This document shows, piece by piece, positions 9,920 to 39,450 of a stretch of DNA of 64,000 nt; within the stretch, counting starts at the first letter, position 1, and every line of letters begins with the position of its first letter. Position numbers and translations under genes: made by a program. The notes below the pieces were generated by a model. The model saw only the letters and a list, made by a program, of their open reading frames with translations. It ran no database searches and was not told the origin of the DNA. The stretch is from a virus (lineage: Duplodnaviria > Heunggongvirae > Uroviricota > Caudoviricetes): IMG/VR virus record IMGVR_UViG_3300031998_000026, positions 51,528 through 115,527 of that record. One strand, written 5' to 3'.

Positions 9920-10771
9920 ATGGAAGATATAACAAATTGTAGGTTTGGAGCTTTGACGCCAGTTGAGTTCGTTGGACATGGCAAGTGGAGATGTATCTGT
10001 GACTGCGGAAACACAGACTACGTGACACGTGCAGTGTTTCTTAAAAGAGGTGACATAAAGTCATGTGGCTGTGGAATACATCGATTTGGAGTGCTGACTG
10101 GAAGGCGATTTGGTCGTCTGACTGTATCTGAGTTTGTTGGAAGAAGCAGATGGCTTTGCAAGTGCGACTGCGGTAAAACCAAGGTTGTAAAGGCAAGCGA
10201 TTTGGTTCGCGGGGACGTCCAGTCTTGCGGATGTTACAAAATCGAACGGACGAAACAAGGCTCAAAGACGCATGGACTGAGCAAGAACAGCGGTAGATTG
10301 TACAGTTGTTGGATCTCAATGAGAGATAGGTGTAACAATCCAAACAATGCACATTATCATCGCTATGGCGGTCGTGGCATAAAAATATGTGACGAATGGT
10401 CTGACTATAAGAAGTTTTATGAATGGTCACACGGAAACGGATTCGACCCAAGCAAGCCATGGAAAGAGTGTACCTTGGATAGGATTGATAATGACGGCGA
10501 TTACTGTCCAGAAAACTGTCGTTGGACGACGCAGTCGATTCAAATCCTCAACCAAAAGCATGTGAGACACCATAGGCGAGGTGTTCCAGTCGATTTGGTC
10601 GGAGACAACGGAGAAGTAATCTCGACGTTTGAGTCGATTAGCGCCGCCGCAAAAGAGACTGGTTGTAAGTTCACGTCTGTAAGCAATACATGCCGAGGTG
10701 CTCAACATCGAGCGAACGGGATGATATTTCAGTATCACGACGAATCTCTTAGGAGGAAGTATGCAAGGTAG
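9920..10771 (+). CDS. HNH/NUMOD-type homing-endonuclease-like protein with tandem Zn-ribbon repeats (paralog 1 of 3)
   Basis: Two repeats FGxLTVxEFVGxxxWxCxCDCGxxxxVxxxxLxxGxxxSCGC, then YHRYGGRGIKICDEW and LDRIDNDGDYCPENCRW (HNH-like), and a C-terminal NUMOD-like FESISAAAKETG; paralogs at 15788 and 38587. Confidence 0.6.
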   Translation: MEDITNCRFGALTPVEFVGHGKWRCICDCGNTDYVTRAVFLKRGDIKSCGCGIHRFGVLTGRRFGRLTVSEFVGRSRWLCKCDCGKTKVVKASDLVRGDVQSCGCYKIERTKQGSKTHGLSKNSGRLYSCWISMRDRCNNPNNAHYHRYGGRGIKICDEWSDYKKFYEWSHGNGFDPSKPWKECTLDRIDNDGDYCPENCRWTTQSIQILNQKHVRHHRRGVPVDLVGDNGEVISTFESISAAAKETGCKFTSVSNTCRGAQHRANGMIFQYHDESLRRKYAR

Positions 10772-11186
10772 ACTCGGCGAAGACAGGGCTCAAATCATAC
10801 TCAACGCCATCCACAACGACCCAACGTTCTTCTTGAGTGACGGATGGTGCGAGGACCACAATGTGACCAAGGATGAGTGCGAGACGTTCCTCGAATACGG
10901 ACTGCGTCTCGCAAAGATGTACGACTGGCGCGCGGTCAACAGCGAGGTCGGGTCTGTCGAGGTGGGCCTGACGTTCACCAGCCACAGCGGCAAGGTCGGC
11001 TCCGAGGAGGAGAAGTGGACGGTGTTCGCCCCCCAGACGGACACGGCGAGGATAATGCGCGTCGCGGAGACGGGCAGGGTCACCGCGGTACTCACCCCCG
11101 AGCAGATGCCGCTGCCGCTCGACGAGGGCATGGGCGTCTTCGACATAGAGACGGGCGAGGTAATAAGTCAGTCACCCCACGCCTAA
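10761..11186 (+). CDS. Hypothetical protein whose C-terminal 8 codons lie inside the inserted mini-element
   Basis: ORF ends ...EVI|SQSPHA*; the last 8 codons fall within the left end of the omega-RNA-like element. Confidence 0.45.
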   Translation: MQGRLGEDRAQIILNAIHNDPTFFLSDGWCEDHNVTKDECETFLEYGLRLAKMYDWRAVNSEVGSVEVGLTFTSHSGKVGSEEEKWTVFAPQTDTARIMRVAETGRVTAVLTPEQMPLPLDEGMGVFDIETGEVISQSPHA

Positions 11187-11490
11187 ATGCGGGGGCTTGA
11201 AAGCCCTGACTGACTAGCCTGAGCGCCTCGGGCGCTACGTTGCCGACGAATGCATAGGCACCCTGGGATGTCCGCCCTAGTCCCAGGCACTGCGGCAGGT
11301 GGTTAAAGGCTCCGAGGGGTAGGAGCGGTGCCGCCTGCGGGAAACCGTCGGACAACATTGGCGAAGGGCAACTTACGGTTCGGCGCATACCGGCTTACAG
11401 CATAAAATGCGCCACTTCGTCAATATTGTGCAGCATCCTAGTAGAGAGGAGAGGTGCGGCTCCTCCCCATGCCTAAAGGCAGGGGTTCCC
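11167..11490 (+). mobile_element. Non-autonomous omega-RNA-only derivative of the IscB element (iscB deleted)
   Basis: Left end AGTCAGTCACCCCACGCCTAAATGCGGGGGCTTG, internal GGACAACATTGGCGA, and right-end hairpin CCTCCCCATGCCTAAAGGCAGGGG are all shared with the IscB element at 25414-26955; no ORF between the ends. Confidence 0.6.
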
Positions 11491-11503
11491 GCCGCACGAA
11501 ACT

Positions 11504-11875
11504 ATGATGGATAGCGGCTTCGAGCCCGAGTTCACGGGCCAGCACTTCGCGTGGGAGCTCGACCAGCTCAACGACCAGCTCGACGAGTCGATAGGTGCGT
11601 TGAGGATTGCGGGGTCGAAGAAGGCCGAGACCGAGAGGGACTACAGGGTCGCGCTCGCCAAGAAGATAATCGCTCTCAGGGCGCTGGGCACGCCCGTCAC
11701 GATCGTCAACGACCTCGCGAGGGGCGACGAGGAGGTCGCGACGCTGAGGCTCAAGAGGGACGTGGCGGAGTCCGAGTACTGGACCTCGCAGGAGGTAATA
11801 AACGTGGGCAAGCTCCGCGTGCGGACGGTCAACGACCAGATAGCGCGCGAGTGGGGCAGGCCAAGCAACATGTAG
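11504..11875 (+). CDS. Hypothetical protein
   Basis: 123 aa ORF immediately after the mini-element. Confidence 0.45.
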   Translation: MMDSGFEPEFTGQHFAWELDQLNDQLDESIGALRIAGSKKAETERDYRVALAKKIIALRALGTPVTIVNDLARGDEEVATLRLKRDVAESEYWTSQEVINVGKLRVRTVNDQIAREWGRPSNM

Positions 11876-11887
11876 GAGGGAGAACGG

Positions 11888-12184
11888 ATGAAGATACCAA
11901 GCGTTGAGGGCCACCTGACGTCCCTCGGCAACCTGGTGGTCGAGCAGACCGAGGACATGCACGTCAAGGTGACCATGAAGGCGACAAACCCGTCGAGGAT
12001 GCGGACGTCCCTGAGCGACTCTGGCGGCAGGGTCGTCCTCGACATGTGGGAGGGGCCACGCCCCCCGAAGGTGGGAGACGAGGTCAACGTGGACGGCAGC
12101 AGCTTTGCCATCACCAAGGTGGAGGCGTACGGCGGCGACATATGGGTGTACGGGGACAACGGACGGAAGGTCAGGTGGGAATAG
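11888..12184 (+). CDS. Hypothetical protein
   Basis: 98 aa ORF. Confidence 0.4.
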   Translation: MKIPSVEGHLTSLGNLVVEQTEDMHVKVTMKATNPSRMRTSLSDSGGRVVLDMWEGPRPPKVGDEVNVDGSSFAITKVEAYGGDIWVYGDNGRKVRWE

Positions 12185-12714
12185 TGTCGGCAGACATCAA
12201 CTCCGTGTCCGTGTCGGGGCACGTCACCAAGGACCCGACGCTTCGCTCGACGCAGTCGGGCACGGGCATACTCACGTTCTCGGTGGCGGTGAACGAGCGG
12301 CGCAAGACGCAGCAGGGCGAGTGGGAGGACGCGCCGTCCTTCGTGGACGTCGTCGTGTTCGGCAAGCCGACGGAGTGGCTCTCGAAGGACGTACGGAAGG
12401 GACGCTTCGTGTTCGTGCAGGGCAAGCTGAGGCAGACGTCGTGGGAGGACCGCGAGACGGGCCAGCGCAGGTCGAAGGTAGAGATAGTGGCCGACCTCGT
12501 CAAGTACGACAGGCTCCCCGACGCCGAGCGTCAGCAGGGCACGTACCAGCAGCCACAGCAGCAGGCGGCGTACCAGCAGCCACAGCAGGGAGCGTACCAG
12601 CAGCCACAGCAGCAGGCGGCGTACCAGCCGCCGCAGCCGACGAGGAGCGCCTACGTCGACCAGAGCCCCGCGCAGCAGCGTGACGACCCATACGGAGATT
12701 CAATCCCCTTCTAG
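12184..12714 (+). CDS. ssb: Single-stranded DNA-binding protein
   Basis: OB-fold core NSVSVSGHVTKDPTLRSTQSGTGILTFSVAVNERRK...RFVFVQGKLRQTSWEDRETGQRRSKVEIVADLV; Q/P-rich linker; acidic tail DDPYGDSIPF; GTG start overlapping the upstream stop. Confidence 0.85.
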   Translation: MSADINSVSVSGHVTKDPTLRSTQSGTGILTFSVAVNERRKTQQGEWEDAPSFVDVVVFGKPTEWLSKDVRKGRFVFVQGKLRQTSWEDRETGQRRSKVEIVADLVKYDRLPDAERQQGTYQQPQQQAAYQQPQQGAYQQPQQQAAYQPPQPTRSAYVDQSPAQQRDDPYGDSIPF

Positions 12715-12766
12715 CACCCGCTAGACGCACGTGCCAGTACAAGACGAAAGAGAAAGGCCCTCCCAC

Positions 12767-13417
12767 ATGGCAACCTACCGCGTACACAAGACCTCCAACT
12801 ACACCGTCATGAGCAACCGCCACCTGAGGGACGAGTCGCTGTCGCTGAGGGCGAAGGGGCTGCTGTCGGTGATGCTGATGCTGCCCGACGACTGGCGGTT
12901 CAGCGTGTCTGGGCTCGCGTCGATCCTCAAGGAGGGGGTCGGCGCCGTCAGGTCCACCCTCGCCGAGCTCAAGGACGCGGGGTACGTGAGGGTCGAGAAG
13001 GTGCGCGACGAATCCGGCAGGTACCGCTACGAGTACGACATATACGAGGCGCCCGGCAACGACGAGGAGAGGCCGTACGAGGTCGAGGCCCCCGACGTTG
13101 ACGAGCCAGGGCATGAGCCGACGCAAGAGAAGAAGCCCGAGCCGAAGGCCAAGGCGAGGAGGCCCGCCAAGCAGAGGCGGTTCAGCCCGCCCGCGCCCGA
13201 GGAGGTCGAGGAGTACGCGAGGTCGATAGGCTTCGCGCTCGACGGCGGGAGGTTCTGCGACTACTACGAGTCAAGGGGCTGGAAGTACAAGGGGAACGTC
13301 GCCATGCGTGACTGGAAGGCGGCGGTGAGGAACTGGAAGAGGTCGGGGTCTAATGACGTTGGCGGCAAGAGACGCAGCGACGAGGACGCGGAGTGGGACG
13401 CGAGGCACGGCTGGTAG
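12767..13417 (+). CDS. Replication initiation / replisome-organiser protein (DnaD-like N-terminal HTH)
   Basis: YTVMSNRHLRDESLSLRAKGLLSVMLMLPDDWRFSVSGLASIL typical of phage replisome-organiser N-terminal domains; precedes the DnaC-like gene. Confidence 0.6.
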   Translation: MATYRVHKTSNYTVMSNRHLRDESLSLRAKGLLSVMLMLPDDWRFSVSGLASILKEGVGAVRSTLAELKDAGYVRVEKVRDESGRYRYEYDIYEAPGNDEERPYEVEAPDVDEPGHEPTQEKKPEPKAKARRPAKQRRFSPPAPEEVEEYARSIGFALDGGRFCDYYESRGWKYKGNVAMRDWKAAVRNWKRSGSNDVGGKRRSDEDAEWDARHGW

Positions 13418-13418
13418 C

Positions 13419-14153
13419 GTGTGTCCGCTCTGCGGGGCCGTGCTCCCCACGAGGGACTTCGCGCTGCCCGGCCACAGGCCGATGGTGGTGACCATGCCGT
13501 GCGCGTGTCCCGGCGCCGTCGCCGAGGCCGCGGCGGAGGCGGCGGAGCGCACGAGGTCCGAGAGGGCGCGGAGGTTCGCGGAGGTGTGGTCGAGGTCGGG
13601 CGTGCCAGAGGAGTTCGCGCACGTCCGCGCCGACTTCTCGAGGGCCGACGCCATCGACTCGAACAGGAGCGTCTACATAGCGGGGAGGAACGGGCGCGGC
13701 AAGACGCACAGGGCGTGCCAGTACGCCAAGGGATGGCTCGTCAGGCACGTCACCGAGGAGCACGGCGTCATGGCCTGCAGGCGCTCGCTGAGGTTCGTGA
13801 CGTCTCAGAGGCTCGCGTCGCTCCTCAAGTCCTCGTGGCAGCGGTGGGACGAGACCGAGGAGGACGTGTTCCAGAGGCTCGCGGGGGTCGACCTGCTGGT
13901 GCTCGACGACCTCGGCAAGGGCGTGCCGAGCGAGTGGTTCGCTGAGAACCTGCTCAGGCTCATAGACGAGAGGTGGTCGGCGCACAAGCCGATGGTCATA
14001 ACGTCGCAGTACGGCACCTCAGAGCTCGCGGACAGGCTCTGCAAGGCTGACGACAACACGCTCGGGGCGCTCAAGTCGAGGCTCAGGGGATGGTGCGACG
14101 GCGAGGTCATCGAAGGGCCCGACAGGAGGATCGGGGGAGGTGTTGTGGAATGA
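13419..14153 (+). CDS. DnaC/IstB-like AAA+ helicase-loader ATPase
   Basis: Walker A GRNGRGKTH, Walker B LLVLDDLG; N-terminal Cys cluster; GTG start. Confidence 0.75.
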   Translation: MCPLCGAVLPTRDFALPGHRPMVVTMPCACPGAVAEAAAEAAERTRSERARRFAEVWSRSGVPEEFAHVRADFSRADAIDSNRSVYIAGRNGRGKTHRACQYAKGWLVRHVTEEHGVMACRRSLRFVTSQRLASLLKSSWQRWDETEEDVFQRLAGVDLLVLDDLGKGVPSEWFAENLLRLIDERWSAHKPMVITSQYGTSELADRLCKADDNTLGALKSRLRGWCDGEVIEGPDRRIGGGVVE

Positions 14154-14410
14154 GGCTGAGGAGGGACGTCCTTGAGGCCAAGCGCATGCGCATCCTGGCG
14201 TACGTGGTCGAGTACGAAAGGCCGTGGGCGCCGAGCGTCGGAGACGTGAGCCGTGGCTGCGGCATCCCGTCGAGGTCGACGGCTGCCGGGCACCTCAAGG
14301 CGCTCAGGGAGATGGGCCTCGTCGACTGGGACGACGGGAAGAGCAGGACGCTGCACGCGACCGAGGAGGGCATCGAGGCCGTCGGCAGGTGGAGGCAGGC
14401 GGGCCTTTAA
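14150..14410 (+). CDS. Winged-HTH regulator (LexA N-terminal-like)
   Basis: MRLRRDVLEAKRMRILAYVVEY...GHLKALREMGLV. Confidence 0.45.
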   Translation: MRLRRDVLEAKRMRILAYVVEYERPWAPSVGDVSRGCGIPSRSTAAGHLKALREMGLVDWDDGKSRTLHATEEGIEAVGRWRQAGL

Positions 14411-14478
14411 CTAGCGACAAGACAGATTGGGTGAGAGGGCGTCTTGCGGGGCGCCCTCGTGTTTTTAGGGGGTACAGA

Positions 14479-15192
14479 ATGCTCATGTTAGACAACGAGG
14501 TATCGGCGGTCATCTCATCGTGCCAGGTCGAGACGGAAAATCCGTGGGACGGGGGAGCATACGCGACGCTCGACGGATCGTCCCTGACGCTCAAATCGCC
14601 GATTGAGACGCTCAGGGTCGACTTCTGGCGCACGACAAGCTGGAAGCAGCGCATGGAGGCACTCTCGAGGCTGTTCTACGTCAACGACTACGAGGCCAAG
14701 GACGAGCCGACCGAGGTGATCATCCACGGCCCAGCGGTCGTCGCGTACTTCGCCGACGGGAAGAGGACGGTCGCCACGTGCAAGGGAGGCGACAGGTTCA
14801 GGCACGCCATGGGCGTCGTCATATGCGCGTTCAAGAGGGTCTGCGGCAAGAGGGAGCGCGTCGACGAGTGGGAGGACGTGCTCGACGCCGTGTGCCGCCT
14901 GTCACCCGAGCAGATGCGCACGCTGTCCAGGACGCTCTCCGTGGCCGCTGACATGCGCGACGTAATTGGCACGCAGGCGAGCTGGAACGGCGTGCTGTTC
15001 GGCCTCTCCGAGCGTGCCCCGAGGACAGCCAAGGCACTCAAGGGCTCGAGGGCAACCGACGACGGGAAGGTGGTCACCGTGTCCCTGCGCAAGGGCGCGA
15101 GCGTGTCGGGAGGGCAGGTGCGGGCTGTCAGGCGGGCAGTACGCAAGGTGTTCGGCGAGCGCGAGGTCAGGTTCGAGGGCCGCACGCGGTGA
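14479..15192 (+). CDS. Hypothetical protein
   Basis: 237 aa; preceded by the TAACTAGCGACA motif and a terminator hairpin. Confidence 0.45.
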   Translation: MLMLDNEVSAVISSCQVETENPWDGGAYATLDGSSLTLKSPIETLRVDFWRTTSWKQRMEALSRLFYVNDYEAKDEPTEVIIHGPAVVAYFADGKRTVATCKGGDRFRHAMGVVICAFKRVCGKRERVDEWEDVLDAVCRLSPEQMRTLSRTLSVAADMRDVIGTQASWNGVLFGLSERAPRTAKALKGSRATDDGKVVTVSLRKGASVSGGQVRAVRRAVRKVFGEREVRFEGRTR

Positions 15193-15662
15193 TCGAGATG
15201 TCAAGGCTCCAAGGCCTGTCAGTCGACAAGGCCGAGCTGTTCGGAAAGCCCAACGTGGGCTGCGAGTACACGGGTTACGAGTCAGGGGCGTATCGCGTGC
15301 TTGACGGCGCACGCTGCGTCGTATGCGGGTCGTACCACCCACTCAACGCACACCACGTATGTCCCCGGTCGGTGCGACACGTGTTCGTGCTCGGGGGACG
15401 CGAGCTAAGGTCGCCCCTCATGTGCCTGTGCGGGTCTGGCACGCAGGGTTGCCATGGGATGCTGCATGCCGGCAGGTTCGCGGTCAGGTGGGAGTGGGAC
15501 TCGGACGAGTCCATGGAGGCATGGTGGTCGGGCGAGCTGCTCGACCGCCACGGCCCGCACTCCGACGAGCTTTACCGATACGGAAGGTATCTGATAACCG
15601 ACCGCATGCGCGGCTTCGACATGACGGTTAGGGGGAACCCCTTTGGACGACGAGACGGTTGA
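15189..15662 (+). CDS. Putative HNH-like Cys/His nuclease
   Basis: VVCGSYHPLNAHHVCPRS ... CLCGSGTQGCHGMLH resembles a His-Me finger with Zn ligands. Confidence 0.35.
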   Translation: MIEMSRLQGLSVDKAELFGKPNVGCEYTGYESGAYRVLDGARCVVCGSYHPLNAHHVCPRSVRHVFVLGGRELRSPLMCLCGSGTQGCHGMLHAGRFAVRWEWDSDESMEAWWSGELLDRHGPHSDELYRYGRYLITDRMRGFDMTVRGNPFGRRDG

Positions 15663-15669
15663 GCGTGCG

Positions 15670-15807
15670 GTGAGGTACGCGCATGACACGGGATACGACG
15701 AGGGCTACGAGTGCGGATACCAGGACGGCTACGACGTGGGCTACGAGGACGGCGTCGCCTACGGATACGAGAAGGGCATCAGGGAGGATGAGGAAACCAA
15801 AATTTGA
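15670..15807 (+). CDS. Small acidic Gly-Tyr repeat peptide (45 aa)
   Basis: GTG start; VRYAHDTGYDEGYECGYQDGYDVGYEDGVAYGYEKGIREDEETKI; high GC3; not in the ORF track (under 60 aa). Confidence 0.35.
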   Translation: MRYAHDTGYDEGYECGYQDGYDVGYEDGVAYGYEKGIREDEETKI

Positions 15808-16444
15808 CCTTACTGGCATGAGGTTTGGAAGACTGACCGTAATTAGCTATAAGGGGCGGCAGTACTGGAACTGTATGTGTGACTGTGGCAACAGCGTAGC
15901 TGTGCGAGCAAACAACCTGAAGATGGGTACCGCAAAATCCTGTGGATGCTATCACAGAGATAGAGTAAGAGAAACATCAACAAAACATGGTGAGCATAAT
16001 AGACCTTTGTATCACGTATGGCAGTCGATGAAACAACGCTGTGGCAATAAGAATAGCCATGTTTATCAGTATTACGGTGGCAGGGGTATTAGCGTATGCC
16101 ATGAGTGGACTGAGTATATACCGTTTCGAAATTGGGCTTTGGCAAACGGCTACGCGCGTGGTCTTACTCTTGATCGTATTGATACAGATGGTAACTATGA
16201 GCCGTCAAACTGCAGATGGGTAACAATGTCTGTACAGAACTCAAATAAGCGCCACTACGAAAGGCCGTCTCTTTACAAACCTGTTGATGCAATAGGCGAT
16301 GATGGTCTTGTGTCACATTTTCCAAGCATAAAGAGCGCTGCAGAGTCTATCGGAGGAAACGTCAATTCGAATAAGACGCGCATACACAAGGCTCTTCGAG
16401 GGGAGATAAACAAGGCATTCGGCATGAGGTGGGAATATGCGTAA
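15788..16444 (+). CDS. HNH/NUMOD-type homing-endonuclease-like protein (paralog 2 of 3)
   Basis: MRKPKFDLTGMRFGRLTVISYKGRQYWNCMCDCGNS..., YQYYGGRGISVCHEW, LDRIDTDGNYEPSNCRW, C-terminal FPSIKSAAESIGG. Confidence 0.6.
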   Translation: MRKPKFDLTGMRFGRLTVISYKGRQYWNCMCDCGNSVAVRANNLKMGTAKSCGCYHRDRVRETSTKHGEHNRPLYHVWQSMKQRCGNKNSHVYQYYGGRGISVCHEWTEYIPFRNWALANGYARGLTLDRIDTDGNYEPSNCRWVTMSVQNSNKRHYERPSLYKPVDAIGDDGLVSHFPSIKSAAESIGGNVNSNKTRIHKALRGEINKAFGMRWEYA

Positions 16445-18023
16445 GCTCACCTTTATCTCGCTCTTCTCCGGCATAGAGGCTGCGAGCCTCGCGTTCGAGC
16501 CGCTCGGATGGGAGCCGGTGGCCTTCTGCGAGGTCGACGAATTTGCAAGTTCTATCTTGGCGAACAGGTGGCCCGACGTGCCGAACCTCGGGTCGATATG
16601 CGACGTGGATTGGAGTGAGTACCATGGAGCAGCTGACGTTTGCATTGGAGGATTTCCGTGCCAAAGCTACAGCATTGCCGGACTCCGCAAGGGACTGGCT
16701 GACCCTAGAGGTGAGCTCATGCTCGAGTTTCTCAGAGCTTGCAGGGAGGTCGACCCCGAGTGGGTCATCGCGGAGAACGTCCCAGGCCTTCTTTCCTCTC
16801 ACCAAGGAAGGGATTTCCAGACCTTCCTCGACGCGGTGGCTATCCTATGGCCTCGGGGGGGCTGCTGTTGGAGGGTTCTGGACGCGCAATGGTTCGGACT
16901 CGCCCAGCGGAGGCGCCGTCTGTTCGTTGTCGTCAACACTCGAGACTGGAGACGTGCCGCAGCGGTACTATCTGAGCCCGAAGGCGTGCTCTGGGATCTT
17001 GCGCCGCAGCAGGAAAAGAGGAAAGCCCTTGCCTCCGGTCCTGCAGGAGACGCTGGAGAGGGTGGCGGCGGAGGAGTGACGTCGTTCAAATGGTGGCAGG
17101 GAGCCAACGCGAGGTCGGTCGCCGCATACGATGACGGGACCACGTCCACGCTCACCAACTCCGACAGCCACCAGGCCGCCGTAATGTACCCTTCCGACAA
17201 GATGCTGTGCATGGCGAGCGGGCAGGCGCACGCCGAGATAGGCGAGGACGTCAGCCCGACGATGTCGGCGAGGCAGTTCAAGGACCCACCGATCGTCATT
17301 GACCGCGCCGCCTACAACCAGGGCGCGAACGCGCAGTACCCCCCCACATAGAGCAGACCGAGCTGATGGACACCCTGGTGGCGAGGGGTCCGCACGCGAT
17401 TGCGTACTCTCCAACGGACAGGAGATAGTCGGCGCGCTGTGCGTGAGGGACTTCAAGGCGGTGGGGAGCCAGTACGTGCAGGAAGGAAAGGTCATATGCC
17501 AGAGGAAGCGTACGTCCTGAAGGTTCGCATGGGAAGCGACACGTGGGTAAAGCCCGACGGCACCGTTGGCACCGCAGGCAAGGGGGCGCTCATAGAGAGG
17601 GAGGTCACGTTCACGTTGGCTACGAGACAGGACCAGACGCTGTTCCACCCAAGTGGCGGCGGATACGTGGTGAGAAGGCTCACGCCGACCGAGACAGAGA
17701 GGCTGCAGGGAATGCCTGACGGCTACACCGACCTGACTGGCTGCGACGTCAAGGCGGTGACGGACAAGGTGGCCGAGTCGCTCGGATACGACGAGAGGCA
17801 GAAGGCGAAGCTCAGGAGAAACGTCCAGAGGTGGTCGAACGAGTGCCCTGACGGCCCGAGGTACCGGTGCACGGGAAACAGCTTCGCGGTGCCGGTGGTC
17901 GGGTGGATCGGCGCGCGCCTGCAGATGGTGCAGGAAATCATAGACGAGACGGAGGGGGCCGACGAGGCCCCCGACTCATGTAGCGAACGGGATTCATTCG
18001 ATTGGATGCAAGATGCCAAGTAA
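16437..18023 (+). pseudogene. DNA (cytosine-5) methyltransferase interrupted by two compensating frameshifts
   Basis: Motif I FSGIEAASLA, motif IV GGFPCQSYSIAG and ENV in 16437-17351; the TRD-like segment ALCVRDFKAVG lies in the +1 frame (17352-17520); motifs IX/X RRLTPTETERLQGMPDGYTD and CTGNSFAVPV are back in the original frame to 18023; frame breaks at C7 tract 17338-17344 and near GGAAGGAAAGG around 17470. Confidence 0.65.
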
Positions 18024-20306: not shown

Positions 20307-20308
20307 CG

Positions 20309-25239: not shown

Positions 25240-25463
25240 GCACAGGCTTAATCGTTGCGGTCGTGACGCTTGTCATCGTGGCCGCGATATACATGGCCTA
25301 TACGATGGGCGAGATATCGGAGATGCGCCGAGCATTGGAGCGTATCGAGCGCAGGCAGAAGCTGAGCGACATACCCACGGAAAGGCGGCCAGACATAGAG
25401 GTGCTGCCGTATGAGTCAGTCACCCCACGCATAAATGCGGGGGCTTGCAATAGCCCCGACTGA
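25236..25463 (+). CDS. Small membrane protein with C-terminus replaced by the IscB-element insertion
   Basis: TM helix LIVAVVTLVIVAAIYMAY; the ORF reads into the element left end at ...EVLPYE|SVTPRINAG. Confidence 0.4.
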   Translation: MSTGLIVAVVTLVIVAAIYMAYTMGEISEMRRALERIERRQKLSDIPTERRPDIEVLPYESVTPRINAGACNSPD

Positions 25464-25647
25464 CCAGCCTGAGTGCTTCGGGCACTACGTTGTCCGCGTC
25501 ATGGCACCCCGAGATGCCTCCTCAGTCTCGGGCTCTGCCGCCCGTCATTAAACAGCCCGCAGGGGTGTGGGCAGTGTGGCGGGCACGACAAGCGCGGACA
25601 ACATTGGCGAGAGGAACATTACCGCCCTTCTGGGCGAGGAGGTATTT

Positions 25648-25650
<3 letters not shown>
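25414..25650 (+). ncRNA. IscB omega-RNA scaffold; the guide would be the roughly 16 nt 5' of the left end
   Basis: About 235 nt structured non-coding stretch directly upstream of and overlapping the iscB start, conserved in the iscB-less copy at 11167-11400. Confidence 0.55.
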
Positions 25651-26955
<1,305 letters not shown>

Positions 26956-31554: not shown

Positions 31555-31556
31555 GA
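31469..31556 (+). repeat. Tandem ~50-bp direct repeat, each copy with an AGGGGC-ATAT-GCCCCT hairpin followed by CCTTTCxGTTAGG
   Basis: gagaggggcgtatatgcccctcctttcggttagg and gagaggggcatatatctgcccctcctttctgttagg. Confidence 0.6.
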
Positions 31557-31568
31557 AGGAACAAGCAG

Positions 31569-32713: not shown

Positions 32714-32719
32714 GAGGGA

Positions 32720-33155: not shown

Positions 33156-33561
33156 ACGGCCGCTGCTGTTCGGCATGTCCAACGGCGGCGAGTTCGAGCC
33201 GGTCTGCGAGATATCCGATACGTCCCCTTTGTCTAGCGACACGGATGACGGGCCGTACTACGACCCCAGCGTCTTCGACGAGCTCTCGGCCACGGTCGAG
33301 GTCGGCCTCGAGGAGTACGGCGACGCGCTCGCCAAGCTGGGCACGGTGTTCCACGCCACAGGCAGTCAGATACAGCTCATGTTCGATCGCATCGTCCGCG
33401 CGCCGAGGTTCTGGTACATATGGCAGTACAAGTCGCACCCGAAGGGCAGGGGCAGGCGTCGCAGAAGGCCGTCCTGGATGAGGGTGAAGACGGTGCTGCA
33501 CGACGTGGAGGTGGAGTCGAGCGGAGACATCGCGACGTTCAGGGCGGTGATGCCAAGATGA
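33136..33561 (+). CDS. Hypothetical protein
   Basis: 141 aa. Confidence 0.4.
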   Translation: MPEDEVRRPLLFGMSNGGEFEPVCEISDTSPLSSDTDDGPYYDPSVFDELSATVEVGLEEYGDALAKLGTVFHATGSQIQLMFDRIVRAPRFWYIWQYKSHPKGRGRRRRRPSWMRVKTVLHDVEVESSGDIATFRAVMPR

Positions 33562-33908
33562 GCGGCAGGAGGGTGTGCGTCACCGGCGGGCGCGACTTCG
33601 ATGATGCCGCCCTCGTCCGCAAGGCTTTCGACGAGATCGGGCTGCGTGGCGGTGACACCCTCGTGCACGGCTGCTGCAGGGGAGCCGACCTGCTGTGCGA
33701 CCGCATAGCCCGCAACGAGTACGGAGCACGCAGCGAGGCGCACCCTGCCGACTGGTACAGGCACGGAAAGGCCGCAGGGCCAATCAGGAACCGGGAGATG
33801 CTGGGGTCAGGCATCGACGTGCTGCTGGCGTTTCCCGGCGGAAGGGGCACCGAGAACTGCGTTGCCACTGCAATTAGGATGGAAATCGAGGTGAAGAGGT
33901 ATGGATAG
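33558..33908 (+). CDS. SLOG-family / DUF2493-like protein (LOG/DprA-like Rossmann fold)
   Basis: CVTGGRDFDD...VHGCCRGADL...GPIRNREML...AFPGGRGTE. Confidence 0.5.
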   Translation: MSGRRVCVTGGRDFDDAALVRKAFDEIGLRGGDTLVHGCCRGADLLCDRIARNEYGARSEAHPADWYRHGKAAGPIRNREMLGSGIDVLLAFPGGRGTENCVATAIRMEIEVKRYG

Positions 33909-34527
33909 TGCTAACTATGGAACGAGCGGCATCCAAAGGCTCAGGAACATGTCACACGAGTTCGACGGTATGTACGATGGCGGCGACAACAGGAGCTTAG
34001 GATACAGGCTCAGGAGCCTCATATGTGACGTCGAGCGCGAGCTTAGGGAGTCGACGGACTTCTGCAAGAGGGTGGAGCTCGCGGCCTCGAAGGGTGTCGA
34101 CGTCACCCTGTTCGGGGCGGAGTACACGCCTTACCCGAAGGGCAAGGACGGGCAGCCCATACTCCTGGGCCAGAAGGTGTACGGCGAGGACGGCCGCGAG
34201 TGGACAGTATTGCGGATCATAATCGGCAAGCGCCACTGCGTCGTGGGCAACGACGGCTCCGAGACCAAGGAGATGCTGCCGGAGTGGCTTACCCATGAAA
34301 GGCCGGAGACGGCGCGCACGGTGGTGTCGGAGCTTGTCGAGGAGGCGTGGAATGCGTTCTGCCGAGGAGTCACGCTGTCCGAGCTGGAGGTCAAGGGGGC
34401 GTTCGACGGGTATGCCGATAGGCTCGAGCTCAAGAGGCCGTGCGCGTGCGAGTCGACTGGCGTGGTCGCCGACGGCAGGTACGTCGGCAACAGGTGGTTG
34501 GACATGGACGAGGAGGTACGGGCATGA
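33901..34527 (+). CDS. Hypothetical protein
   Basis: 208 aa. Confidence 0.45.
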   Translation: MDSANYGTSGIQRLRNMSHEFDGMYDGGDNRSLGYRLRSLICDVERELRESTDFCKRVELAASKGVDVTLFGAEYTPYPKGKDGQPILLGQKVYGEDGREWTVLRIIIGKRHCVVGNDGSETKEMLPEWLTHERPETARTVVSELVEEAWNAFCRGVTLSELEVKGAFDGYADRLELKRPCACESTGVVADGRYVGNRWLDMDEEVRA

Positions 34528-34685
34528 TCGCCGCGCTCTTTGATGTCGTGGGGGCGATTGCGGCCGTTGGCCTCGGTGTGGTGGTCATCACGCTGATGTG
34601 CGCGTTGGTGCTTTTCTTCGCGACGGTCATACGTGACATGTGGCACGAACTTATGCGCCACGACAAAGGAGGAGGACACCTATGA
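34524..34685 (+). CDS. Small membrane peptide
   Basis: MIAALFDVVGAIAAVGLGVVVITLMCALVLFFATVI. Confidence 0.3.
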   Translation: MIAALFDVVGAIAAVGLGVVVITLMCALVLFFATVIRDMWHELMRHDKGGGHL

Positions 34686-34984
34686 CACCGTGCCCCCAGA
34701 CGACCGAGCTCAGGGAGGGCCTGGACAGGCTCGGGATACCGTACGAGACGAGCGACGCCGAGGGGTGGGTCGACCTGGACGAGTGGACGGAGGTGTTCGC
34801 CCACCACGAGCAGACGGACTTCATCCACGGCGACAGGATATACACGGTGACCTACCATTGGGACAGGGATGCCGACGAGCGCAAGATGGGGCGCTCGCTC
34901 GGATGGCCTGCATTCATGGAGTGCGAGGTCGACGGCATGTCCAAGATGGTGGAGGCGTGGGAGCTCCTCGAGGAACTCGGGTAG
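34682..34984 (+). CDS. Hypothetical protein
   Basis: 100 aa. Confidence 0.4.
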   Translation: MTPCPQTTELREGLDRLGIPYETSDAEGWVDLDEWTEVFAHHEQTDFIHGDRIYTVTYHWDRDADERKMGRSLGWPAFMECEVDGMSKMVEAWELLEELG

Positions 34985-35173
34985 ACGAACAAATTTACTG
35001 GTTCTCGCGCACGTTGCGAACGCGTGTGCTACACTTGAAGAACACTGATGCGCCGTAGTATCGAGCATGGTAGTAGCACAGTCGTGCGACTTGGTACGCC
35101 TTTTTGCCATCAGGACTATCCGTTTTTCCAGCGACGAATGCGCCGCTGGATAGTCCTGCGAAAGGCGTGCCTT

Positions 35174-35890
35174 ATGTCAGACAATAGTGTTGTCAACCAT
35201 GGTGGTGTTGACTATAGAAGGGTTATGCGTGGTGGTTACTTCGTCTTGCATCCCATAGACGGAGAGCGTACGGATTACAGCGTGTCGATACCTGAGCATA
35301 GACTTGTTTATGAAATTGCCCATAACAAAAAATTGCCAAGCGACGTACAGGTCCATCATCTCAACCACGACAAATTGGATAATCGAGTCGCTAATCTGAT
35401 AGCAGTTACTCGCGAGGATCATATGCGCATACATGCATATGAGAACAATCATGTCGATCGCATAACTCGGAAGAGGCGTACTGACGACATACTTGCTAAC
35501 CTTGCGACATATGACGGGCAGATATATTACAGGAGGCTCAGGGACGGAAAATACGTGCTCTCACCGATTGTTGACGGGCATATCGATTTTGAAAAGACTG
35601 TATATGAGCACAGACTTGTCTACGAACTCGCCAACGGAATAGAGCTTGACGCAACGACGCGCATAACGCATATCAATGGTGACGATACAGACAATCGAAT
35701 CGAAAACCTCTCAGTTGACAAAACGCATTTTTCGCGGCCAAGCAAAGATGAGCTTAAAGGCTTGATTAAGGGATACACTGACCGCGAAATTGCTGAGAGG
35801 TTCGGGGTACGTAGGCATACCGTATACAAATGGAGAAGGTTCTATGGCTTTCCTCCTGAGAATGGCTATAGGAATACGAACGAGAAGTAG
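35174..35890 (+). CDS. Tandem double-HNH endonuclease with C-terminal HTH (homing-endonuclease-like)
   Basis: Two HNH_3-type motifs EHRLVYEIA...VHHLNHDKLDNRVANL and EHRLVYELANG...ITHINGDDTDNRIENL; C-terminal GYTDREIAERFGVRRHTVYKW. Confidence 0.7.
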   Translation: MSDNSVVNHGGVDYRRVMRGGYFVLHPIDGERTDYSVSIPEHRLVYEIAHNKKLPSDVQVHHLNHDKLDNRVANLIAVTREDHMRIHAYENNHVDRITRKRRTDDILANLATYDGQIYYRRLRDGKYVLSPIVDGHIDFEKTVYEHRLVYELANGIELDATTRITHINGDDTDNRIENLSVDKTHFSRPSKDELKGLIKGYTDREIAERFGVRRHTVYKWRRFYGFPPENGYRNTNEK

Positions 35891-35932
35891 TTTTAAGGCG
35901 TCCAACGTCTTGATAATAACGGATGTGATGCA

Positions 35933-37033
35933 ATGCAAGACTTGAAGATATACGCCAAGAACCTCGAGCGGGCGGCTCGGGAGCAGATAGACACGCTCGC
36001 GAGCCTGCCCGCCTTCGAGGGGGCGAAGATAAGGATTATGCCCGACGCGCACGCCGGAGCGGGATGCGTCATAGGGTTCACCGCCGACCTCGGCGACAAG
36101 GTGGTCGCGAACCTGGTGGGGGTAGACATCGGCTGCGGGATGCTCACGGTCAAGCTGGACGGGCGCGTGGACTTCGAGCGTCTCGACAAGGTGATCCGCA
36201 AGGTCGTGCCGAACGGCTTCGGAGTGCACGGCAGGCCGACGTGCGACGTGGCGTCCCTCGGCCTCAGGTGCTTCGACAGCCTCAAGAAGGTGGAGCACCT
36301 CGACAGGTCGATGGGGACACTCGGCGGAGGGAACCACTTCGTCGCTGTCGACGAGGACGCCGATGGCAACCAATACCTCATCATCCACACGGGCTCGCGC
36401 AACCTCGGGCTGCAGGTGGCAAACATCTACCAACGGCTCGGCGAGGAGACGTGCGACGCCGACGTGCCGAGGGACCTCAAGTGGCTTGACGGACAGGATG
36501 CCGATGACTACATGCACGACATGAGGATATGCCAGAGGTGGGCGTGGGAGAACCGCGAGGCCATAGCGAAGGCCATCCTCGTCGGAATCAGGTCGGATGC
36601 AGATGACGAGTTCCAGACCGTCCACAACTACATCGGAGACGACAACGTCATACGAAAGGGAGCCATATCCGCAAAGGGCGGCGAGCGCGTGCTCATACCG
36701 CTCAACATGCGTGACGGCTGCCTAGTCTGCACGGGGCTTGGCAACGTTGACTGGAACGAGTCGGCCCCGCACGGAGCAGGGCGCACCATGAGTCGCAGGA
36801 AAGCCAAGGAGACGCTCGATGTCGAGGACTTCAAGGCCCAGATGCAGGGCGTGTATTCCACGACGATATGCGAGGCGACGCTTGACGAGGCGCCGGACGC
36901 GTACAAGCCCGCACGGGACATCATCGACGCAATAGACGGCGTGACCGTCACCGTCGACGAGCACCTGCGGGAGGTCTACAACTTCAAGAGCACCGACGAG
37001 TCAGGCTGGCGAAGGAGGAAGAAACGCTCTTGA
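35933..37033 (+). CDS. rtcB: RtcB-family RNA 3'-phosphate/5'-OH ligase
   Basis: MPDAHAGAGCVIGF, GTLGGGNHF, HGAGR motifs. Confidence 0.8.
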   Translation: MQDLKIYAKNLERAAREQIDTLASLPAFEGAKIRIMPDAHAGAGCVIGFTADLGDKVVANLVGVDIGCGMLTVKLDGRVDFERLDKVIRKVVPNGFGVHGRPTCDVASLGLRCFDSLKKVEHLDRSMGTLGGGNHFVAVDEDADGNQYLIIHTGSRNLGLQVANIYQRLGEETCDADVPRDLKWLDGQDADDYMHDMRICQRWAWENREAIAKAILVGIRSDADDEFQTVHNYIGDDNVIRKGAISAKGGERVLIPLNMRDGCLVCTGLGNVDWNESAPHGAGRTMSRRKAKETLDVEDFKAQMQGVYSTTICEATLDEAPDAYKPARDIIDAIDGVTVTVDEHLREVYNFKSTDESGWRRRKKRS

Positions 37034-37086
37034 CATAGCGACACCATCGGGCGGTCTTCGGGCCGCCCGTTTCGATTGGGGGATGC

Positions 37087-37323
37087 ATGCGATTAGGCAA
37101 CAAGGACGTCCACATATCCGACGTCTCCCCGACCCTGCATCACGGCATAGAGTCCGAGTGCGAGCACGGGCACGTGTGGTACTCCACGGTCAGGGTGTAC
37201 TGCATAGACGACGGCGAGCACAGGCGATGGCTCGCGACTTGCCCCGTGTGCAGGCGGCAGACGGAGACGTGCGCGACTTACCAGGAGCCATTGGAAAGGG
37301 CGGCGATGGAGTGGTGGACATAG
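37087..37323 (+). CDS. Small Zn-ribbon protein
   Basis: CEHGH...CPVCRRQ. Confidence 0.35.
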   Translation: MRLGNKDVHISDVSPTLHHGIESECEHGHVWYSTVRVYCIDDGEHRRWLATCPVCRRQTETCATYQEPLERAAMEWWT

Positions 37324-37385
37324 GCACTATAGCTAGCAACATCATAGGGCGGCCTTCGGGCCACCGCTTTTTCTAAGGAGGGACA

Positions 37386-38504
37386 ATGAATCCGAATCGC
37401 AAGATGGCGACGATGAGGAAGGTGGACGCGATTACGCCCATCGACGGCGCAGACAGGATAGAGTGCGCGCACATCGGTGGATGGACGTGCGTCGTGGGCA
37501 AGGGGGACTTCGGACCCGGCGACCTCTGCGTGTACTACGAGGTCGACTCATTTTTGCCCACATCGGACCCGAGGTACGCGCAGTTCGCCGAGCGTGGCGA
37601 GAAGGTCATGACCATAAACGGCAACCCAACGAGAGGCCACGTGCTCAGGACAATCAAGCTCAGGGGCCAGATAAGCCAGGGCCTGCTGATGAGGCCACGG
37701 GACGTGCTGCCAGAGTCCGTTCCCGAGCATGCCTATCGGCTCATGTACGAGCGCAGGGCGAGGCTCGACGGCATATGCGGCGTGCGCGAGTACCACCCCG
37801 ACCAGAACTCACTTGCCGCCGGGTTCATAGGGAAGTACGACCCATACGTGGCACCCAGGACGGGATGCGAGCGCATCCAGAACATAGACCAGGACGTGTT
37901 CGACCTAATCAAGCGGTGCGTCTACTTCACGAGCGTGAAGGTGGACGGCACGAGCATAACGCTTGTCAACGACTCCCGACACGGCCGCATAAGGGCGTTC
38001 TCGCACAACAACGAGTTCGACGTGGGCGAGGGCCAGGGCAAGCTGGTCATGGAGACTGCAGCGCGGCAATGTCTCGACGTGTTCCTCGACGAGAACCCGG
38101 ACATAGCCATACAAGCCGAGCTATGCGGCCCAAAAATCGGGGGCAACACGCTCAGACTCAATGACTACAAGCTGTTTGTGTTCTCCATGTGGGACATGGT
38201 CGGCAGGCGATACCTGAACCCGTATCTGACGTACAGCCATGCCATAGCGAACTCGACGACTCCATGTCTCGACCTCGACCTCGACCAGTTCGACATGCCG
38301 CAGGACCTCATCGAGTGGACGAACTCCCTTCGCGGGTCGGTCACGAAGGATGCGCTCGACGAGGGGATAGTCGTGCACGTCATGGACACGGGCGACCTGT
38401 CAAAGGACGAGCAGACGATGCTTCGCAATGTGCTGGGCGAGCAGATGCAGATGAAGAGCGTCTCGGCGGCGTTCCTGCTCAAGAAGGCGAAGAAGGCCAT
38501 ATAG
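37386..38504 (+). CDS. ATP-dependent RNA ligase (covalent nucleotidyltransferase superfamily)
   Basis: Motif I KVDGTS (adenylation lysine), motif IV-like EGIVVHV; adjacent to rtcB. Confidence 0.6.
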   Translation: MNPNRKMATMRKVDAITPIDGADRIECAHIGGWTCVVGKGDFGPGDLCVYYEVDSFLPTSDPRYAQFAERGEKVMTINGNPTRGHVLRTIKLRGQISQGLLMRPRDVLPESVPEHAYRLMYERRARLDGICGVREYHPDQNSLAAGFIGKYDPYVAPRTGCERIQNIDQDVFDLIKRCVYFTSVKVDGTSITLVNDSRHGRIRAFSHNNEFDVGEGQGKLVMETAARQCLDVFLDENPDIAIQAELCGPKIGGNTLRLNDYKLFVFSMWDMVGRRYLNPYLTYSHAIANSTTPCLDLDLDQFDMPQDLIEWTNSLRGSVTKDALDEGIVVHVMDTGDLSKDEQTMLRNVLGEQMQMKSVSAAFLLKKAKKAI

Positions 38505-38586
38505 CTAACGACATTACGGCGGCCTTCGGGCCGCCGATTCTTTAAGGAGGATGGCATGAACGAGAAACGCAGCGGAGGATTGAGGG

Positions 38587-39450
38587 ATGCCTAGGAAACC
38601 TATAGACGTATCTGGACAACGTTTTGGGATGCTTGTAGCCAAGGAATACATAGGACTTGGAAACTGGATATGCGAGTGCGACTGCGGCAATGAGACTGTC
38701 GCTCGCAGCACTGCGCTCATAGGCGGAAAAAGGCTTTCATGCGGATGCAATCATCAAGAAGCGCTTCGGCGCGCAAGAGTTGACAGAACCGGGAAGCGAT
38801 ACGGGAGACTCACAGCCATCAGACATGTCGGAAAGCAGAACTGGCTGTGTCGATGCGATTGTGGCAAAGATGTAGTGGTAGATGGAAGAAACCTAACGTG
38901 CGGACACACGAAGTCATGCGGATGTCTAAAGCTCGAAAAATCAAAAGAGCTCAATAGAACACACGGATGTTCAAAGAGTAGGCTCTATCGCGTATGGAAA
39001 GGCATGCGAAAGAGATGCCTAAACAAAAGCGAACCGGCTTATAAGAACTATGGCGGCAGAGGAATCAAGATATGCGATGAGTGGCTTGACGACTATCAAG
39101 CGTTCCGCAATTGGGCCATGGAGCACGGGTATGACGAAAACGCACCCTATGGAGAGTGCACTATCGACAGGATTGACGTAAACGGCAATTACGAGCCAAG
39201 CAATTGCCGGTTCATAACTCTTGGCGAGCAATCGAGAAATACCAGACATTGCAGACAGGTTGAGGTGGTCGACTCTAACAACGACGTCATCGCAACATAT
39301 GGCACGGTCACTGAAGCAGCCGAACGCACAGGCATAAGCAAGTCGTCAATCTATCGAACATGCACTGGCAGACAAAAGAGCACACACGGACTGCGAATGC
39401 GATATAGATCCCGCATTCATGCTCAAGAAGTCGAAGAAGGGATAGGATAA
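38587..39450 (+). CDS. HNH/NUMOD-type homing-endonuclease-like protein (paralog 3 of 3)
   Basis: QRFGMLVAKEYIGLGNWICECDCGNE..., YKNYGGRGIKICDEW, IDRIDVNGNYEPSNCRF, C-terminal YGTVTEAAERTG. Confidence 0.6.
   Translation: MPRKPIDVSGQRFGMLVAKEYIGLGNWICECDCGNETVARSTALIGGKRLSCGCNHQEALRRARVDRTGKRYGRLTAIRHVGKQNWLCRCDCGKDVVVDGRNLTCGHTKSCGCLKLEKSKELNRTHGCSKSRLYRVWKGMRKRCLNKSEPAYKNYGGRGIKICDEWLDDYQAFRNWAMEHGYDENAPYGECTIDRIDVNGNYEPSNCRFITLGEQSRNTRHCRQVEVVDSNNDVIATYGTVTEAAERTGISKSSIYRTCTGRQKSTHGLRMRYRSRIHAQEVEEGIG

Follow-up and report, generated by a model that had tools for sequence, protein, structure and literature searches.

Introduction

T4, SPO1, and Skunavirus are well-known examples of phages with several free-standing homing endonuclease genes (HEGs) of the HNH superfamily in one genome, and free-standing HEGs are a main source of mosaicism in phage genomes. 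Since such sets have already been described in these phages, the four genes dealt with here, three paralogs called P1, P2, and P3 and a double-HNH gene called HNH4, would constitute an ordinary phage phenomenon. They are carried by a 64,000-nucleotide stretch of a Caudoviricetes genome (IMG/VR record IMGVR_UViG_3300031998_000026, positions 51,528 to 115,527), the whole of which is referred to below as the window. The seg and mob HEGs of T4 depend on the recombination functions of the phage, and inteins are a classic HEG niche.

To our knowledge, PacI is the only enzyme in which a tyrosine of the omega-loop stands in place of the general-base histidine. This enzyme is His-less, and its single metal is held by an Asp and an Asn residue (PMC5714182; PMC4081073). 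The PacI-like His-Me fingers (group 20) are predominantly viral (PMC5714182), and a PacI-like class of presumptive homing HNH endonucleases occurs in lactococcal phages (PMC12724721). The catalytic residues of I-HmuI are D74, H75, and N96 (PMC12724721).

The comparisons presented here make it fairly probable that all four genes are free-standing HEGs, which were acquired independently and lie exactly at gene boundaries, and that P1–P3 have a PacI-like active site. Each gene forms a discrete low-GC insertion of 0.65–0.94 kb on the same strand as its neighbors. Polymorphism was found at the junctions, the neighboring genes are intact, the lineage is tied to a target gene in the case of P3 and HNH4, and the flanking sequences diverge in that of P1 and P2.

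Sequence and Architecture of the Four Genes

The genes are located as follows:

9920..10771, + strand: P1, 283 amino acids (aa), with two Cys-rich repeats, a predicted His-less beta-beta-alpha-metal (beta-beta-alpha-Me) core (DRIDNDGDYCPENC at residue 187), and a tail resembling NUMOD and helix-turn-helix (HTH) domains; GC content 0.461
15788..16444, + strand: P2, 218 aa, with one Cys-rich repeat
38587..39450, + strand: P3, 287 aa, comprising two Cys-rich repeats, the core (DRIDVNGNYEPSNC at residue 194), and a putative NUMOD/HTH tail
35174..35890, + strand: HNH4, 238 aa, with two tandem HNH_3 units and a C-terminal HTH_23 domain; GC content 0.455; ends 43 bp before rtcB

The original prediction, which was made from the letters of the DNA without any database searches, described the first three open reading frames (ORFs) as paralogs. 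They are real and paralogous, sharing 40–45% aa identity (tblastn E-values 1e-50 to 1e-69), and no copy beyond P1, P2, and P3 was detected by tblastn within the window. The two N-terminal repeats attributed to all of them, the unit of which is W-x-C-x-C-D-C-G…S-C-G-C, are present in P1 and P3, but P2 carries only one. The YxxYGGRGIxxCxEW and (L/I)DRIDxxGxYxPxNCR(W/F) blocks were found in the alignment to be common to all three proteins. A GIY-YIG reading of the stretch LY…YGGRGI was ruled out, the region being helical in the structural model. As regards the C-terminal NUMOD-like tail, P1 and P3 gave sub-threshold matches to Pfam PF22083 (E-values 2e-4 and 4e-3) and P2 gave none, and the same was true of NUMOD1, which remained below the cut-off in P1 and P3 and had no match in P2. 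The NUMOD reading is nevertheless backed by the HMMER alignment, in which the tail aligns to residues 83–171 of I-HmuI, and by the fold match to the C-terminal region of this enzyme.

All three paralogs belong to the PHROGs family phrog_374, annotated "HNH endonuclease," with E-values of 1e-67 to 1e-75 over the repeat plus the core. No HNH model of Pfam or NCBIfam matches them, even at E<=1 in the case of Pfam, or at E<=10 when the core was searched alone. The initial description of these genes as homing-endonuclease-like and free-standing is borne out; their label "Zn-ribbon/HNH/NUMOD" has to be qualified, the HNH core being non-canonical.

The four genes are compositional islands, with a GC content of 0.45–0.49 and a GC content at third codon positions (GC3) of 0.45–0.50, in a window with a GC content of 0.606, the ordinary genes of which have GC3 values of 0.73–0.93. 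They lie between complete ORFs, with overlaps of 1–20 nt, or a 43-bp gap in the case of HNH4 and rtcB, and no intron was found at any of them with Rfam. The 3' end of P1, stop codon included, runs 11 nt into the next gene; P2 overlaps an upstream 54-aa ORF by 20 nt and the start of a C5-methyltransferase gene (16437) by 8 nt; and the stop codon of P3 overlaps the ATG of the gene encoding a CxxxCxxC protein (TAATG). The gene caller placed the start of P2 at the ATG at 15818, but the start at 15788 was preferred because of the family consensus N-terminus, DLTGxRFGRL. Among the homologs retrieved with P3, none was closer to P1 or P2 than 47–50% identity; taken together with the identity of 40–45% between the paralogs, this fits independent acquisitions better than duplication within the genome.

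Junctions of P1 and P2

The relatives of the phage (designated by L-numbers) were retrieved via flanking proteins and exact-protein look-ups. The look-ups performed with the 141-aa and 78-aa flanking proteins gave only HEG-containing copies of the same phage, and no relatives were retrieved when IMG/VR was scanned with the RNA ligase and with RecT as single proteins, or the reference genomes with RecT. The original prediction considered the placement of these genes to be typical of homing endonucleases, and named the lack of any presence/absence polymorphism as the finding that would speak against this view. Presence/absence polymorphism does exist at the junctions of P1 (L020, L021), P2 (L020, L011), and P3 (L004), and the slot upstream of rtcB is variable, which supports the homing interpretation.

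The following features are relevant to P1:

9846..10760, unstranded: segment inserted with P1, 915 bp, corresponding to 18 bp in the HEG-less relatives L020 and L021, as determined from blastn breakpoints and junction sequences
10761..10920, + strand: divergent tract covering the beginning of the 141-aa gene beside P1, as determined from the identity to L020 per 40-bp bin

In L020, the closest relative (RecT 99% identical at aa level, flanks 95.5% identical at nt level), and L021 (RecT 87% identical at aa level), the RecT gene is followed by a 74-aa ORF and a 137-aa ORF. The flanks of the P1 site are 90–96% identical to those of these two relatives, and the left flank is 98–100% identical to that of L021 right up to the breakpoint. 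On the right-hand side, in the 141-aa gene, the identity to L020 in successive 40-bp bins is 75, 67, 73, 82, 90, 92, and 100%: the divergence decays within about 240 bp, and full identity is reached by position 11001. The changes in the first ten codons of this gene are mostly synonymous. This divergent tract has the appearance of a recoded target region or of the result of co-conversion.

P2 is flanked by the following gene:

16437..17351, + strand: N-terminal subunit of an apparently split C5 DNA methyltransferase

In L020, the P2 site is empty, and a 59-aa GY-rich ORF overlaps the start of the methyltransferase gene by 14 nt; in L011, where it is likewise empty, the two flanking genes are less than 100 bp apart. 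Both P2 and the methyltransferase begin with MRK. Over its first 40 bp, the methyltransferase gene is only 68% identical to that of L020, and thereafter the identity amounts to 95–98%. The C5-methyltransferase gene is the probable target of P2. At both P1 and P2, the flanks may contain short duplications of the downstream gene's start.

The methyltransferase consists of two ORFs in the window (16437–17351 and 17400–18023, + strand), which share the same frame and are separated by a single stop at 17349–17351, and of overlapping ORFs in different frames in L020 (14062–15488). The in-frame stop was not taken as evidence of a pseudogene or of recoding, since the relatives also encode two ORFs, and the gene looks like one encoding a natural split enzyme. 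In L018 (9671–11884) it carries an intein (Hint_2), and in L011 (1579–3987) an insert of about 830 bp. The methyltransferase gene is a hotspot for selfish elements.

Junction of P3 and its Association with RNA Ligase Genes

The P3 junction includes the following features:

37386..38504, + strand: RNA ligase gene (PF09414), associated with the P3 lineage
38469..38496, + strand: left copy of a 28-bp direct repeat, consisting of the 3' end of the RNA ligase gene
38497..39440, unstranded: P3 insertion relative to L004, 944 bp, consisting of a TAGCTAACGACAT/hairpin/ribosome binding site (RBS) cassette, a 12-codon mini-ORF, P3, and the right repeat copy
39413..39440, + strand: right copy of the direct repeat, identical to the left one at 25 of the 28 positions; a duplicated ligase tail which forms the 3' end of the P3 ORF

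In L004, the ligase of which is 83% and the CxxxCxxC protein 93% identical to those of the window at aa level, P3 is missing and the two genes are 4 bp apart. No clear gradient of divergence was detected in the P3 flanks.

Homologs of P3 are present directly downstream of an RNA ligase gene in L017 (90% identity), L026 (64%), and L018 (63%), and just upstream of one in L027 (53%). Counting the window, the P3 lineage was therefore found beside an RNA ligase gene in five contexts, and the ligase alleles of these relatives are only 45–54% identical to that of the window. A copy of the ligase tail forms the end of all four downstream HEGs (window, L017, L018, and L026). Those of L018 and L026 match the local ligase, ending in KAKD* or KAKE* in frame. 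The copy present in L017 (GCGTTCCTGCTCAAGAAG…AAGGGATAG) matches the ligase allele of the L004/window type rather than the tail of L017's own ligase, which is AAATATCTGCTAAGGGGATGA. This heterologous tail indicates that the cassette moved between divergent ligase alleles, carrying with it a piece of its former target.

HNH4 and the rtcB Junction

The double HNH_3 and HTH organization proposed for the gene at 35174–35890 is borne out by matches to Pfam HNH_3 (E-value 2.4e-21, in two stretches) and HTH_23 (E-value 6.8e-6). The two units result from an internal duplication of about 104 aa, and the canonical His residue is present in both of them. HNH4 is predicted to be a canonical HNH_3 enzyme, the tandem catalytic units of which could enable a single monomer to cut both strands.

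The gene located downstream is the following:

35933..37033, + strand: rtcB, where the homology to L023, L024, and L025 starts at the start codon or not more than six bases from it

That the homology with the relatives starts at this point reveals a mosaic boundary, with an HNH slot immediately upstream. In L023 (RtcB 92% identical at aa level), the slot is occupied by a different HNH_3 and HTH gene, the product of which is 36% identical to HNH4, so that the HNH4 lineage adjoins rtcB in both the window and L023. No HNH gene is present upstream of rtcB in L025 (RtcB 82% identical at aa level). The slot is variably occupied, and constitutes a mosaic boundary rather than a clean empty site. A similarity of 13 out of 15 nt between 35027–35041 and the start of rtcB was judged to be too weak to qualify as a target duplication.

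Predicted Fold and Catalytic Residues of the Nuclease Core

The AlphaFold2 model of P3 is confident (predicted local distance difference test score 91). The N-terminal repeats are modeled as three strands followed by helices, with matches to small barrels of the Tudor/SH3/KOW-like type. They are followed by a helical subdomain (residues 132–179), a beta-beta-alpha unit (strands 192–195 and 207–210, helix 212–217), a beta-hairpin, and an HTH. The core of P1–P3 is predicted to have the beta-beta-alpha-metal fold, and the best fold matches are I-HmuI, over the full length, and PacI, over the core. In the HMMER profile alignment with I-HmuI (1U3E), N206 pairs with N87 and Q215 with N96, and the invariant N218 lies three residues further on. 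The position of His75 of I-HmuI, the last residue of strand beta1, is occupied in P3 by Arg195, which is preceded by Asp194. The lack of HNH catalytic residues had been named at the outset as a finding that would tell against these genes being homing endonucleases, and the answer is a mixed one: the general-base His is replaced by Arg, but the Asp and Asn positions and the predicted fold are kept.

Arg195, Tyr202, Asn206, and Asn218 are invariant in the 52 aligned homologs, Tyr202 being located in a predicted omega-loop between beta1 and beta2. The Arg and Tyr pair was present in all 139 occurrences of the motif found in the cluster representatives (50% identity), and the exceptions to the strict motif which were checked among the 120 closest homologs also keep the Arg. 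The pattern D/E-R-I-D/N..G.Y.P.N…Q..N is strictly conserved in 52 + 120 + 147 homologs. Residues H126, C144, C163, and C207, which are at least 94% conserved, could form a CCCH zinc site. By their sequences, P1–P3 are not canonical HNH enzymes. Because the Asp and Asn are kept and the omega-loop Tyr is invariant, an active PacI-like mechanism was rated as likelier than inactivity, and by analogy with PacI the modeled P1–P3 most likely use a His-less active site of this kind.

Distribution of the P Family

The 105-aa core matches 106,704 cluster representatives (50% identity) at E<=1e-3, and 64,088 at E<=1e-10. Among the GenBank phages, 1,087 records carry members of the P family, annotated either "HNH endonuclease" or "hypothetical protein," the carriers including Staphylococcus Kayvirus and Salmonella, Pseudomonas, Vibrio, Bacillus, and Mycobacterium phages. 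A motif scan of the reference genomes gave at least 594 confirmed matches, and Bacillota, Collinsella, Bacteroidota, and others are among the matches listed. The number of repeats, defined by the strict motif, ranges from 0 to 5 in the 120 closest homologs.

In many records of Jerseyvirus phages, the intein of the DNA polymerase harbors a member of the family, which is read in an alternative frame. In the Salmonella phage vB_SenS_4FS1 (PP537413.1, L112), a 247-aa P-family ORF (2354–3097), with an intact DRIDTDGNYEPGN motif, lies within the coding sequence 921–4019: this is an overlapping HEG-in-intein arrangement. Many proteins among the representative hits P0361–P0507 have two to four stretches of the His-less core, and the tandem HNH_3 units of HNH4 resemble these multi-core members. 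The literature search yielded no biochemical characterization of phrog_374 or P-family members; a search with the YGGRGI motif returned only unrelated venom papers, and PacI-like homing HNH endonucleases were found to be mentioned in a single paper, dating from 2025.

Proposed Homing Mechanism and Alternative Explanations

If the four genes are indeed HEGs, the protein would bind, in the course of a mixed infection, to a long asymmetric site spanning the uninterrupted junction of a HEG-less allele. The binding would involve the Cys-rich repeat array, which comprises 0–5 repeats in the homologs by the strict motif, and the NUMOD/HTH tail, and the beta-beta-alpha-Me core would then nick or cut the junction. 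The break would be repaired from the HEG-bearing genome by the YqaJ exonuclease, RecT, and RusA, which are encoded a few kb upstream of P1, and the HEG would be copied along with some flanking sequence. In the active site of P1–P3, the metal would be held by Asp194 and either Asn218 or Gln215; Tyr202 in the omega-loop would activate or replace the water nucleophile, and Arg195 would take the place of the canonical His. The duplicated short gene ends and the overlaps would preserve the termini of the neighboring genes and their translational coupling.

Several observations weigh against this picture. No His residue is present anywhere from beta1 to beta2 in P1, P2, or P3, so that the canonical general base is missing. 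The resemblance to PacI is modest and concerns the fold only, since no sequence match to PacI was obtained in the PDB at E<=10 with either a single sequence or profiles; nor was the core found to be related in sequence to HNH or PacI using phmmer and hmmsearch on the PDB, hmmscan on Pfam, or hhalign with HNH4. Simple double-strand-break repair is not expected to give a 28-bp flanking duplication such as that present at P3. In the case of HNH4, the upstream gene differs between the relatives, as at a mosaic boundary.

The missing His could mean that P1–P3 are dead descendants of homing endonucleases, kept as DNA-binding regulators or site blockers, and that the insertions are old and immobile. 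No member of the family has a His at the general-base position, and P1–P3 are rich in DNA-binding modules; moreover, His-less His-Me fingers such as Smad MH1 and Enpp are catalytically dead, Smad MH1 only binding DNA (PMC5714182), and the one PacI-like phage HNH protein assayed in Skunavirus was inactive, showing no exclusion activity (PMC12724721, section 19). Both of these precedents also tell against an active enzyme in the present case. However, P1 is missing from a genome with flanks about 95% identical, and a short divergence tract is present beside it, which points to a recent, targeted gain. The P3 lineage has reached ligase alleles only 45–54% identical and brought a foreign ligase tail with it, and members of the family are found inside inteins. 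Lastly, more than 100,000 sequence clusters keep the Asp, Asn, Arg, and Tyr invariant, which fits an active site better than a relic. Loss of activity is therefore unlikely to account for these genes, and the reading of P1–P3 as active HEGs is preferred.

The 28-bp imperfect direct repeat at P3 and the possible short duplications at P1 and P2 would also fit the view that the genes are passengers, inserted by homologous or microhomologous recombination between gene ends, or by a transposition-like target duplication in which the protein was not involved. The phage encodes RecT, YqaJ, and RusA, other mobile elements are present in its genome (TnpB, IscB accompanied by an omega RNA, and an omega RNA standing alone), and its clade is strongly mosaic. 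The inserts, however, have no transposase or terminal inverted repeats, the same nuclease-like family is present at three different junctions, and one lineage recurs with one target gene in unrelated backgrounds, which random capture does not predict; we accordingly find it very improbable that they are passengers. The explanation we credit least is that these proteins are nucleases serving in warfare or host takeover, which cut the DNA of competitors or of the host and bring about marker exclusion without propagating themselves, and are thus not true homing elements. Phage HNH enzymes can exclude related phages (PMC12724721), viral members of the PacI group have been proposed to be viral restrictases (PMC5714182, group 20), and four different nucleases per genome could help in competition. 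Exclusion and homing are nevertheless two outcomes of one activity, and the pattern of empty and filled sites and the target fragment carried along show that the genes themselves spread.

The TAGCTAGCGACAT Motif

Six copies of this motif occur in the window:

37330, 38502, 40470, and 43324, 47484: TAGCTAGCGACAT copies
54356, - strand: TAGCTAGCGACAT copy

Several of the HEGs were originally thought to be bordered by TAGCTAGCGACAT, but only the copy at 38502 adjoins a paralog (P3). The motif is significantly over-represented, with six copies versus 0.06 expected. It opens with a TAG that serves ordinary genes as their stop codon, and after it come a GC hairpin, in many cases a T-run, and an RBS. 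The possibility that it marks the ends of HEGs was ruled out, since it trails the stops of ordinary genes in the window and in the relatives regardless of the HEGs. It belongs to a clade-wide intergenic cassette with a conserved 10-mer, also present in L003, L004, L020, L023, and L024, which may serve as a promoter, a terminator, or a site of processing. The cassette copy at 38502 and the mini-ORF resemble the cassette and start-codon region upstream of the ligase gene (37330). A pattern scan of IMG/VR with TAGCTAGCGACAT plus the hairpin gave one unrelated match (L019).

Genomic Context

The window forms part of a 117.8-kb metagenome contig (ENA ERZ27257204, k141_4222975). Its gene content is phage-like, and includes HTH repressor-like genes, RusA, the YqaJ exonuclease, RecT, SSB, an IstB-like loader, and the C5 methyltransferase, together with an RNA-repair set (RtcB and the RNA ligase) and the following tRNA genes identified with Rfam:

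43947-44840, + strand: array of nine tRNA genes
2613-2686, + strand: one isolated tRNA gene

No match to the window was found among the GenBank phages by megablast with 12-kb pieces, and the only host clues are homologs in Collinsella and Atopobiaceae. The junction comparisons show that the clade formed by the relatives is strongly mosaic. The genome hosting the four genes is that of a temperate-type, high-GC metagenomic phage. The neighbors originally named for these genes were all recovered: RecT; the IstB-like loader and LexA-like genes; the RNA ligase and the CxxxCxxC protein; and RtcB. The gene at 39450–40472 (+ strand), which had been described as a radical SAM gene, has the motif CPMRCAFC (CxxxCxxC) and belongs to phrog_24834, a family of unknown function (E-value 3.6e-106); its product had no Pfam match.

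Other mobile elements occur alongside. A complete IscB/OMEGA element (25415–26955, + strand) lies within the span covered by the original prediction, where it was not listed:

25415-25622, + strand: HEARO (omega) RNA, Rfam RF02033, 175.9 bits
25648-26955, + strand: IscB ORF, 435 aa, Pfam RRXRR (E-value 5.7e-65) plus HNH_5/HNH, a fifth HNH-containing gene in the span

A solo HEARO/omega RNA without any adjacent IscB is present at 11167–11376 (+ strand, 141.9 bits). A 340-bp segment carrying this solo RNA (11169–11507), just downstream of the gene flanking P1, is missing in L020 and L021, and constitutes a further presence/absence polymorphism. A TnpB (OrfB_IS605/Cas12f-like) gene is located at about 47940–49100 (- strand) in the window, and its end region recurs, over 245 bp and with 90% identity, as an insert between two genes of L020 (10078–10322), with a 47-bp trace in L021 (3242–3288), which suggests that miniature TnpB-end elements are scattered through the phage clade. 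The low-GC island at 6484–7353 (+ strand, GC content 0.515) encodes a protein of 289 aa, the N-terminus of which is HTH-like and which gave weak matches to Hjc and to a PHROG family of Holliday-junction resolvases; L020 has a 116-aa ORF at the same position. This gene may be a fifth mobile nuclease gene, with a different fold. In the relatives, a TROVE/Ro60-like gene adjoins the RtcB and RNA ligase genes (L004, 106–1593; L025, 5526–7031), and the window stretch 35933–38504 contains rtcB and the ligase gene but no TROVE gene. Its presence in the relatives points to a variable phage module involved in RNA repair or RNA quality control.

Comparison with Known Systems

It is possible, though we put this forward tentatively, that P1–P3 represent a huge, biochemically uncharacterized class of homing endonucleases, in which the replacement of His by Arg is permanent, the chemistry relies on the omega-loop Tyr, recognition depends on a modular array, and the P3 cassette drags the 3' end of its target along with it. 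If this is true, these would be the first homing endonucleases with PacI-type chemistry, the repeats and the NUMOD/HTH tail would form a naturally modular and possibly re-targetable DNA-recognition scaffold, the array of repeats perhaps amounting to a modular DNA-recognition code, and the P3 cassette would preserve the C-terminus of the host gene wherever it is inserted. Three unusually clean before/after HEG junctions are available here, along with a molecular fossil, the foreign ligase tail, which records a transfer between divergent alleles. Should the family prove to act through a Tyr mechanism like that of PacI, a large proportion of the "HNH" annotations would correspond to a distinct chemistry; if it is inactive, many of the annotated phage "endonucleases" would be DNA binders. 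The empty-site sequences provide concrete substrates for deciding between the two.

The I-HmuI-like free-standing HNH enzymes of phages (SPO1; Skunavirus; 1U3E) share with the present proteins, as these are predicted, the modular monomer, the beta-beta-alpha-Me nuclease, the NUMOD-like element, and the HTH tail. As here, the presence of the Skunavirus HNH endonucleases varies at the junctions, and their lineages cluster with the insertion site (PMC12724721). HNH4 is, like I-HmuI, of the canonical HNH_3 type, but has two catalytic units instead of one. P1–P3 differ from I-HmuI in that they have Arg in the position of His75 and no HNH_3 match, that their N-terminal DNA-binding part is made up of Cys-rich repeats modeled as small beta-barrels, and that the beta-beta-alpha unit comes after a helical subdomain containing the YGGRGI loop. 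In addition, I-HmuI is intron-encoded, whereas P1–P3 and HNH4 are free-standing.

With PacI and the "PacI-like" His-Me finger group 20 (3M7K/3LDY), P1–P3 are predicted to share the absence of a catalytic His, the omega-loop Tyr, and the Asp/Asn residues for the metal. PacI, however, is a restriction enzyme of 142 aa that forms homodimers, has two Cys4 zinc sites, and recognizes an 8-bp palindrome, whereas P1–P3 are 218–287 aa long and presumably monomeric, with long modular DNA-binding arrays and, it would seem, a homing lifestyle. The family phrog_374, "HNH endonuclease," does include P1–P3, but this name is no more than an annotation, and the core is not covered by any model of Pfam or NCBIfam. 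The "intronless homing" of the T4 seg and mob genes resembles the present situation in that the genes lie between conserved genes, are distributed patchily among relatives, and show co-conversion or divergence of the flanks. The nucleases themselves are different, being of the GIY-YIG type in the case of seg and canonical HNH in that of mob; and unlike the T4 genes, the HEG ORFs described here overlap the neighbors on both sides, and the P3 lineage carries the duplicated tail of its target gene.

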